DNA of 64,000 nucleotides from a virus (lineage: Duplodnaviria; Heunggongvirae; Uroviricota; Caudoviricetes). Both the position numbers and the translations under genes were made by a program. Below, one piece after another: positions 21,207 to 21,346 of the stretch. The DNA lies in the IMG/VR virus record IMGVR_UViG_2740892442_000004. One strand, written 5' to 3'. Positions within the stretch are counted from its first letter, which is position 1; every line of letters starts with the position of its first letter. The notes below the pieces were generated by a model. The model was not told the DNA's origin, ran no database searches, and was given only the letters and a program-made list of their open reading frames with translations.

Positions 21207-21346
21207 AAACATCACGATAAGTATTTACTTACTTATCTTTTATGTATAAGATGACTTTGTTTTCGTTGAGACGCGACTGTTTGAACTTAAATACAAGTGC
21301 AAACGAAGAAGTCTATCTGGCAGTAGCCTAATAAGCCAAACACCAG

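Follow-up and report, generated by a model that had tools for sequence, protein, structure and literature searches.

Palindromic operators repeated at many promoters are known from the IncP plasmid RK2, in which the dimeric repressors KorA and KorB coordinate all backbone functions and KorB binds 12 dispersed sites. The plasmid prophage P1 has 22 C1 operators dispersed over its genome (PMC8546580). Here we describe a 22-bp quasi-palindrome that recurs along 64,000 nucleotides of a Caudoviricetes genome (IMG/VR record IMGVR_UViG_2740892442_000004; this whole stretch is referred to as the window), which shares ~98% identity with Cyrano (pLF82), an SSU5-like phage-plasmid, and, going by this identity, is part of an element of this kind from E. 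coli. The repeated motif is real and occurs far above chance, and we consider it moderately likely that its copies are operators of the element's own XRE-type master repressor, overlapping the lytic promoters. Our full-text literature searches found no account of the 22-bp motif or of the regulatory logic of the SSU5 group.

The repeat unit is the quasi-palindrome rATArGTAAGT-ACTTAyCTATy. Using the pattern ATARGTAAGTRNNTAYYTAT with up to three mismatches, we identified 39 matches over both strands, i.e., ~20 distinct loci, as compared to a mean of 0.39 matches (maximum 2) in shuffled sequences, and a palindromised weight matrix found 14 window sites with a score of at least 16 and none in shuffles. 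In total the window contains 15 strong copies and ~5 weaker ones (Table 1). An earlier note on this DNA had claimed a dispersed palindrome at many sites, which agrees with these counts; out of the 18 coordinates it listed, 13 are strong sites (score 19–29) and two are intermediate (18706 and 54419; ~13), whereas the remaining three (26236/26240, 28896 and 41449; scores 3–7) are core-only or half-site variants. Its coordinates for the strong sites are 0–9 nt off the true 22-mer starts, and its list lacks the strong site at 24205–24226. The form in which it wrote the motif, GTAAGTA-N-TACTTAC, is absent as such (allowing up to two mismatches gives only one unrelated match), and the true register differs. 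Its description of the copies as almost always lying between genes holds: 14 of the 15 strong sites are outside the called open reading frames (ORFs) in a window that is only 13% non-coding (P = 7e-12), and the exception, 24205, is upstream of its gene's likely true start. Between the motif end and the next start codon there are 0 to ~170 nt, and a position just upstream of a ribosome-binding site (RBS), also claimed, applies to five window sites (0–31 nt to the start codon).

The outer 7-bp arms (ATArGTA and TAyyTAT) are the best conserved and nearly invariant, the inner AAGT/ACTT is looser, and A/T-rich flanks prolong the symmetry. Symmetric positions vary independently of each other: at every variable pair the number of Watson–Crick pairs equals the expectation under independence (positions 5/18, for example, have 13 A-T, 15 G-C, 11 A-C and 6 G-T). 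Sense-strand RNA hairpins range from 0 to -8.5 kcal/mol, with 6 of the 15 sites between 0 and -1.1 kcal/mol. The better half-site is the left one at seven sites and the right one at eight, though nearly all genes point rightward, and the Rfam scan gave no family match at any motif site. What the copies share is therefore a short dyad-symmetric DNA sequence, recognisable by its letters and not by a fold. Given independent half-sites, unconserved hairpin stability and no bias in orientation, the site pattern points to a dimeric DNA-binding protein rather than to a structured RNA or a directional polymerase promoter. We rejected a structured RNA, an intrinsic terminator and a REP-like hairpin given the lack of covariation, the variable energies, the A+T-rich stems and the lack of an Rfam match, and the promoter of a T7-like single-subunit polymerase is unsupported given the symmetric consensus and the lack of an annotated polymerase (the annotations of Cyrano and SSU5 contain no phage RNA polymerase; not all of their hypothetical proteins were examined).

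The window shares ~79% DNA identity with Salmonella phage SSU5, and phage-plasmids of Klebsiella are also related. At a stricter matrix threshold Cyrano contains 21 strong sites and SSU5 contains 22 (21 in its first 100 kb), as compared to none in shuffles; including intermediate scores there are 24–27 sites per genome. Cyrano, SSU5 and K. oxytoca pCAV1015-111 (68% identity in the helicase) share the sites genome-wide, 21–25 per genome, at orthologous positions between genes, ranging from the terminase genes to the tail, lysis, replication, recombination and nucleotide-metabolism genes, and the matrix scan found none in a ~20-kb region of small genes and minus-strand regulators. Judging by this conservation, the sites are under selection. 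The consensus of K. oxytoca pCAV1015-111 is slightly shifted (rATAAGTAAGnnnTTACTTAty). An exact-pattern scan of viral contigs gave 60 loci on ~30 contigs, and all but six of these contigs are 37–114 kb long, as expected for the family. A host regulon was considered and rejected, as the exact scan of 185,579 species genomes returned only a few Enterobacterales contigs and chance-level singletons.

An Acinetobacter baumannii phage-plasmid (37% identity in the helicase) contains ~27 intergenic copies of a different palindrome, aaarAT-CAGTCAsTACTGACTr-aTTT (core CAGTCAGTACTGACTG, as in rAT-CAGTCAGTACTGACTG-ATy), in the same places as the enterobacterial sites; one copy, for example, lies directly past the capsid gene and before its terminator. 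The Acinetobacter half-site differs from the enterobacterial one by two mirrored changes (A4 to C and A8 to C), and the AGTACT centre is kept. At the level of sequence comparison, this shows the site to co-evolve between the enterobacterial and Acinetobacter lineages. The Pseudomonas phage nickie is a strictly lytic, syntenic relative that lacks the integrase and the repressor; in nickie there was no matrix match, and no intergenic word was found at more than 8 loci by the same procedure that finds the motif at 23–24 loci in Cyrano and Acinetobacter. A Thauera plasmid with a distant repressor homologue was set aside as a conjugative plasmid and not a relative.

The candidate repressor is a helix-turn-helix (HTH) protein that matches PHROG 8 (transcriptional regulator) with E = 1e-11, whereas Pfam HTH_19 stays below its cut-off. 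Its N-terminal domain was predicted with a pLDDT (predicted local distance difference test) of 86–89 as a five-helix XRE HTH. The model matches C.BclI, C.AhdI, Stl, HigA, lambda cI and 434 Cro; the target-normalised template modelling score (TM-score) is 0.6–0.8 for C.AhdI, C.BclI, HigA, lambda cI and 434 Cro. As modelled, the encoded protein has the XRE fold typical of dimeric operator binders. In a study of LF82 the gene was described as a putative master repressor expressed in the lysogen, and genotoxic stress was found to induce Cyrano (PMC9928086). The Cyrano genes listed there as expressed in the LF82 lysogen include the repressor and maintenance/toxin genes (PMC9928086), and in our mapping of the sites onto that list none of these genes is directly behind a strong site.

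Homologues of the repressor are found in 865 plasmid records, with taxon counts nearly equal to those of the core helicase (~900 plasmid records for each of the two), and nearly all homologues in the protein database are on contigs of ~100–116 kb. The repressor was not found in the full SSU5 genome or in nickie. By these occurrences, the repressor appears to track the plasmid lifestyle. We note that SSU5 (NC_018843.1, 42596–42761), as compared to window 24725–26672, is without the whole module of integrase, XRE repressor and small divergent ORF, and that plasmid-resident relatives including pHCM2 and Y. pestis pMT1 carry this integrase–repressor module in the interval from the tRNA cluster to cobT, which is consistent with SSU5 being a derivative without the repressor.

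A sigma-70-type promoter is predicted for the repressor gene (Table 1), and the 14-bp core GGTAAGCACTTACC (26240–26253) is located 1 nt past the predicted -10, spanning the expected start site. The earlier note had placed one copy in the XRE regulator's control region; this copy is indeed present, but as the core only. The layout TTTACA-16/17-TAATAT-C-rGTAAGyACTTACC, with the same non-consensus flanks, is also found in Y. pestis pMT1, S. Typhi pHCM2 and a K. pneumoniae plasmid. A putative operator that overlaps the regulator's own promoter, as expected under autoregulation, is thus found here at a predicted promoter. In K. oxytoca, two copies of that lineage's form of the motif lie 31–59 nt upstream of the repressor gene, and Acinetobacter has its own palindrome upstream of the repressor homologue (NZ_CP156934.1, 84453–84917), whose recognition helix reads RPNVLSMIKSG as compared to NANNLSLIKSG. 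We also note isolated half-site-like sequences (ATAGGCACTTAA, AATAGGTAAG and TATAAGTTAG) at window 26302–26445, in the interval that separates the repressor gene from the small divergent ORF (26460–26672), which may be auxiliary low-affinity sites.

The relation of the motif to promoters was examined with a scan for two hexamers at a spacing of 16–18 nt. The site at 39824 appears to be the clearest promoter–operator module: TTGAAA/TATTAT with the motif in the 17-bp spacer is kept at Cyrano 57445, SSU5 55694, K. oxytoca 36906 and Acinetobacter 35259, the last with its own palindrome. Weaker promoter-like matches are overlapped by the motif at 36305, 41776, 49842 and 59390, and within the first 60 kb the plus strand has 20 promoter-like matches, 7 of which are at motif sites. 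In Acinetobacter, 13 of 26 sites swap the last palindromic G such that a TAnnnT hexamer is created on the gene side and none does so on the other side, which suggests that a -10 overlaps the downstream end of the site. The right end of the enterobacterial motif, TATnaT, is mirrored on its left side, so a -10 at this place is indistinguishable from the palindrome itself. No fixed -35 or -10 upstream of the motif is seen in the logos of 42 enterobacterial or 27 Acinetobacter sites, and an upstream-activator geometry (site near -41) is incompatible with sites that are 0–31 nt from start codons. From these positions, the motif is probably located at promoters. As to the earlier suggestion of a phage promoter or operator consensus, the operator is favoured by the symmetry, the independent halves and the core at the XRE promoter in four lineages, whereas a directional phage-polymerase promoter is unsupported, given the symmetry of the motif and Cyrano and SSU5 annotations that list no RNA polymerase gene.

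From the anatomy, conservation and co-evolution of the site, its placement at the promoter of the repressor gene and the XRE fold of the protein, we infer the binder, repression and the transcription starts as follows. A dimeric regulator, most likely the XRE/Cro-CI-type protein of 25822–26208, would bind ~20–25 full operators spread across ~85 kb of rightward lytic genes (structural, lysis, replication, recombination and nucleotide metabolism). Each operator would head a gene block, overlapping or just past a weak sigma-70-type promoter, where the palindrome would fill the -35/-10 spacer and give the first bases of a TATnaT -10, or cover the start site. Bound repressor dimers would silence every block in the plasmid prophage, and the weaker core-only copy at the repressor's own start site would provide negative autoregulation. 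Repression is favoured over activation because the sites overlap core promoter or leader positions, at which a bound protein blocks rather than activates.

Several observations weigh against this proposal. The repressor's own site fits the full consensus poorly (score 4.8), and most sites have no recognisable -35. At 13203, 59390 and Cyrano 2019 the start predicted from the right-end -10 falls past the RBS, and at 3–4 sites per genome a terminator-like hairpin follows 3–9 nt after the motif. Sites are found inside the late structural cluster, which is unusual for a lysogeny repressor; in P1 the late operons carry no C1. SSU5 keeps all sites without the repressor, which fits a recent loss or, equally, a repressor-independent function. 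The 88-aa CYRAN_123 family, small DNA-binding proteins encoded just upstream of terS (outside the window) and conserved in SSU5, K. oxytoca and Acinetobacter, is an alternative candidate for the binder. Finally, that nickie is without the motif is only weakly informative, since the other intergenic motif of the family (described below) is missing there as well.

Much the same sites could be explained by activation. The palindrome would then be the recognition element of the lytic promoters, at which an early phage factor, either dimeric or redirecting host RNA polymerase, activates all middle and late blocks; one candidate factor would be the small winged-helix-like protein encoded upstream of terS, and the copy at the repressor promoter would give a Cro-like shut-off. 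We find this explanation unlikely, even though nearly every lytic block is headed by a site, the structural cluster included, as phage-specific promoters are distributed. The lack of a -35 at most sites gives them a factor-dependent look, the window has fewer sigma-70-type matches than shuffled sequences do, the Acinetobacter motif is directional (-10-like hexamer on the gene side, 13 versus 0), SSU5 retains all sites with no repressor, and the CYRAN_123-family protein is kept in SSU5, K. oxytoca and Acinetobacter. P1 offers a precedent in its 11 late promoters with a 9-bp inverted repeat bound by Lpa (PMC10695390). However, the site lies over the spacer and the -10 or the start site, a position from which a bound dimer would normally obstruct RNA polymerase, and the geometry of an activator centred near -41 is impossible at the sites closest to start codons. 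Early-type genes (replication, nucleotide metabolism) and late-type genes are both preceded by sites, so no single temporal class is marked; lytic nickie has no equivalent motif; and neither an RNA polymerase nor a sigma gene is in the Cyrano and SSU5 annotations. We regard as somewhat more doubtful still the idea that the palindrome is the docking site of a phage-specific transcription device common to the SSU5-like elements of Enterobacterales and Acinetobacter, in which a dimer sitting inside ~25 promoters without -35 could either license the host's RNA polymerase or protect it from termination; transcription from some of these promoters would begin within the terminator stem of the upstream operon, and the same site would shut off the repressor gene. 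If true, this would be a new kind of genome-wide middle/late switch in clinically widespread phage-plasmids.

It is improbable, to a degree beyond either of these, that the motif acts as RNA, i.e., as a 5'-leader stem-loop by the RBS bound by an RNA regulator of translation, processing, stability or antitermination, one candidate binder being the family's FljA-like protein. Many copies 0–31 nt before start codons, some against the RBS, would suit such a role, as would the terminator hairpins after some copies (like antitermination sites), the full-length FljA homologue encoded by the family (PF03614, E = 1e-80), and the symmetric changes between lineages, which would also keep a stem. FljA prevents translation of the fliC mRNA (PMC2652032). 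However, pairing does not covary within lineages and A-C mismatches are at chance frequency, 6 of the 15 sense-strand hairpins are essentially without stability, the central would-be loop is found in both orientations relative to genes, and no Rfam family matches at the sites. A stem would be impossible at the repressor promoter, whose predicted start lies inside the palindrome, and the FljA-like homologue is not detectable in the Acinetobacter element, which keeps the site system. Very unlikely, in our view, is some other kind of DNA site, such as a ParB/KorB-like roadblock or silencing site, a replication or recombination site, or a nicking- or restriction-related site (the AGTACT centre is of the ScaI type). 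The family encodes ParA and two ParB-like proteins, dispersed palindromic operators have a precedent in RK2 KorB, the motif-then-terminator pairs would suit a roadblock against read-through, and the AGTACT centre is kept in both lineages. Against this, nickie has ParB-like genes as well but is without the motif, the strict pre-gene placement and the link to the repressor promoter point to transcription control, and double-strand breaks would be expected from a symmetric nicking site. Localised nick sites as in T5-like phages were also considered and dropped, as no supporting text was found in the literature and the symmetric site argues against them.

Table 1. Motif sites and related features. 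Coordinates refer to the window unless another genome is named; motif sites are given from the start of the 22-mer, with a dot as strand for palindromic sites and scores from the palindromised weight matrix.
Feature	Coordinates	Strand	Score	Context
XRE/Cro-CI-type HTH repressor gene, 128 aa	25822–26208	-		adjoins integrase gene; proposed motif binder
Predicted sigma-70-type repressor promoter, TTTACA-16-TAATAT	26255–26282	-		from consensus scan; kept in four lineages
Strong site AATAGGTAAGTATTTACCTAAT	4245–4266	.	26.1	tail protein J / tail-fibre gene gap; orthologues Cyrano 22447, SSU5 21936
Strong site GGTAGGTAAGTATATACCTATA	8455–8476	.	25.9	upstream of holin/lysis block; right end is TATAAT; orthologues Cyrano 26656, SSU5 27473
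Strong site GATAAGTAAGTAACTACCTACC	13203–13224	.		11 nt to ATG 13236; AGGTGAG RBS abuts motif; orthologues Cyrano 31295, SSU5 33599
Strong site	17797–17818	.	25.3	divergent gap 16625–17677 (-) / 17861–18655 (+); orthologue SSU5 38177
Intermediate site, good left half only	18706–18727	.	13.2	9 nt to ATG 18737; terminator-like hairpin (stem 18673–18689) ends 16 nt before
Strong site, flagged example GATAAGTATTTACTTACTTATC	21216–21237	.	28.6	among best copies; 10 nt past stop of 20916–21206, upstream of tRNA cluster; orthologues Cyrano 38251, SSU5 41772
Strong site	24205–24226	.	26.7	42 nt to likely ATG 24269 of thioredoxin-like gene; sigma-70-like promoter TTGATC-16-TATAAT (24165–24192) ends 13 nt upstream
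Core-only palindrome GGTAAGTGCTTACC, 14 bp	26240–26253	.		1 nt past predicted -10 of XRE gene; 31 nt to repressor ATG
Weak variant GATAAGTAACCACTTACGATAG	28896–28917	.	3.0	left half and inner right good, outer right arm off; upstream of cobS-like gene (28975)
Strong site	36305–36326	.	23.7	uvsY-like / gp32-like single-stranded DNA-binding protein gene gap; overlaps TAGATA-17-TATCAT; orthologues Cyrano 52658, SSU5 52174
Strong site	39824–39845	.		fills spacer of TTGAAA-17-TATTAT (39819–39847); 31 nt to ATG 39877; terminator-like hairpin (stem 39789–39809) 14 nt before
Weak half-site variant AATAAGTAAACACTAACCACAA	41449–41470	.	6.7	upstream of 41483–41758
Strong site	41776–41797	.		abuts ATG 41798, without RBS; 22-mer identical in Cyrano and SSU5; overlaps promoter-like TTTACA-17-TAGTAT and TTTATA-16-TATCAT
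Strong site	45158–45179	.	27.3	upstream of SbcD-like gene; orthologues Cyrano 63198, SSU5 63079
Strong site	49842–49863	.	28.0	RuvC-like / NrdA gap; terminator-like hairpin 49869–49890 starts 5 nt on, a layout repeated in SSU5 and K. oxytoca
Intermediate site TGTAGGTAGTTATCTATCTATG	54419–54440	.	13.8	134 nt upstream of 54553 site
Strong site	54553–54574	.	19.5	upstream of ThyX gene; ~50 nt past terminator-like hairpin
Strong site	59390–59411	.	28.7	10 nt to ATG 59422 (adenine methyltransferase gene); promoter-like TTGCCA-17-(TG)AAAAAT ends within its first 3 nt
Strong site	61606–61627	.	26.2	overlaps stop codon of RNase H-like gene; 128 nt to ATG 61756
Structural-cluster sites	Cyrano 2019, 3526, 5442			terL/portal gap; inside portal 3' end; past capsid gene (in this order)
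Motif-then-hairpin loci	window 49869–49890; Cyrano 5468, 15558 and 67909 regions; Acinetobacter 14769, 18459, 59548, 62986

According to the Cyrano annotation, nearly all annotated genes of the window are on the plus strand, in the order tail, lysis, toxin-antitoxin and parA, helicase, primase, ligase and tRNAs, then integrase, the 'putative repressor', cobT/cobS, DNA polymerase III alpha and recombination genes, with the last part including repA, sbcCD, nrdAB and thyX. The tRNA cluster (Asn, Tyr, Thr and Ser; window 21985–22638, plus strand) is ~750 nt downstream of the 21216 site; three of the four tRNA genes are kept in Cyrano and tRNA-Asn alone in SSU5, and comparable tRNA blocks are known in P7 and other coliphages. 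Using Rfam, we also identified a full-length cspA thermoregulator at window 34188–34606 on the minus strand (186 bits, gathering score 78), which implies a minus-strand cold-shock gene with a temperature-sensing leader just past the DNA polymerase III alpha gene.

Sigma-70-type matches are overall rarer in the window (positions 1–60000, both strands) than in dinucleotide-preserving shuffles (10 versus 26, 22 versus 32.5 and 15 versus 31.2). The motif-then-hairpin layout is found at conserved places, namely past the capsid gene, past the minor tail protein M gene and before nrdA, with the next RBS after the T-run; as a speculation, transcripts that start at the motif would begin inside the terminator stem and so escape termination. 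A second dispersed palindrome, (a)AGA-AAACAAnTTGTTT, has 13-mers in the window at 11058, 13988, 26739, 40973, 52284, 62514 and 63243, and 18–24 sites each (0–1 mismatch) in Cyrano, SSU5 and K. oxytoca. It directly precedes the RBS and start codon, and in these three genomes the copies in the small-gene region are ~12 nt downstream of a GATAAT -10, some promoters there having two copies, one on each side. It heads parA, dnaB, cobT, nrdB and terS and, in the region without the first motif, many small genes, and gives the impression of a distinct promoter/operator class under a regulator of its own.

The FljA homologue of Cyrano, CYRAN_114, is encoded outside the window (OV696614.1, 100780–101301, minus strand) and annotated as 'transcriptional regulator/repressor'; its homologues share 78% (SSU5) and 40% (K. 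oxytoca) identity, and Hfq/Sm-like segments are present. As FljA is a post-transcriptional repressor of phase-1 flagellin, CYRAN_114 might silence the host fliC, or might act on phage mRNAs. As binder of the motif it is a low-probability alternative; the E. coli fliC leader is only loosely like the motif (ATAGGATAAC as compared to ATAGGTAAGT), and no homologue is detectable in Acinetobacter.

Phage-plasmids of the SSU5 type abound in E. coli, Klebsiella, Enterobacter and Salmonella (pHCM2), they are the source of part of Y. pestis pMT1, and relatives are also found in Acinetobacter. For these elements the present analysis offers a candidate operator–repressor pair open to direct testing, a map that divides each genome into ~20–25 transcription units, a specificity swap that occurs in nature (GGTAAGTACTTACC versus CAGTCAGTACTGACTG) for the study of regulon–repressor co-evolution, and practical handles for inducing, curing and detecting SSU5-like plasmids.

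As compared to known systems, the dispersed sites resemble those of RK2 in that short palindromic operators, presumably bound by dimeric repressors, are repeated around a plasmid; the operator sequences differ, however, and KorB belongs to the ParB family whereas the candidate here is of the XRE type (the ParB-like genes of the family do not track the motif, because nickie has them as well). The lambdoid cI/Cro proteins and the C proteins of restriction-modification systems share the five-helix XRE HTH fold and, as proposed here, the binding of dimers to promoter-overlapping palindromes of 14–22 bp and autoregulation. They act at 2–6 operators in one or two loci, whereas at least 20 presumed high-affinity sites are found here and the repressor's own site is weak. 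T7-type promoters are likewise ~22-bp elements at some 15–25 intergenic sites near RBSs, but they are asymmetric and all point with the genes, unlike the symmetric motif with its evenly divided better halves. The Lpa promoters of P1 are comparable in that an inverted repeat replaces the -35 beside the -10 at about a dozen gene blocks (PMC10695390); in P1 it is centred ~22 bp upstream of the start and serves late genes only. The 22-bp repeat here overlaps the putative -10 or start (with TATnaT at motif positions 19–24 as the -10, the dyad centre would be near -19.5, overlapping the -10) and is also found before early-type genes and at the repressor promoter.

By analogy, the nearest precedent is the P1 C1 regulon, with which the element shares the plasmid-prophage lifestyle, ~20 presumed operators over a genome of ~100 kb and, as proposed here, a repressor gene that is itself under such operators. 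C1 is a 283-aa protein of a family other than the 128-aa XRE-type HTH protein found here, and the Pfam and PHROG scans of the candidate repressor gave no similarity to C1 (only XRE-type families matched). The P1 operators are asymmetric 17-mers (ATTGCTCTAATAAATTT) as opposed to the symmetric 22-bp palindrome, and the late operons of P1 are reached indirectly via Lpa, whereas here sites are also found within the structural and lysis clusters. The SSU5-like elements thus share the number and dispersal of sites with P1, and neither the asymmetric 17-bp operator nor a C1 homologue. The proposed system would be a genome-wide, symmetric version of the phage repressor–operator regulon, a category that is itself already known, and if the sites are operators, it would join P1 as the second plasmid prophage kept silent through operators across the genome and not through one immunity region.

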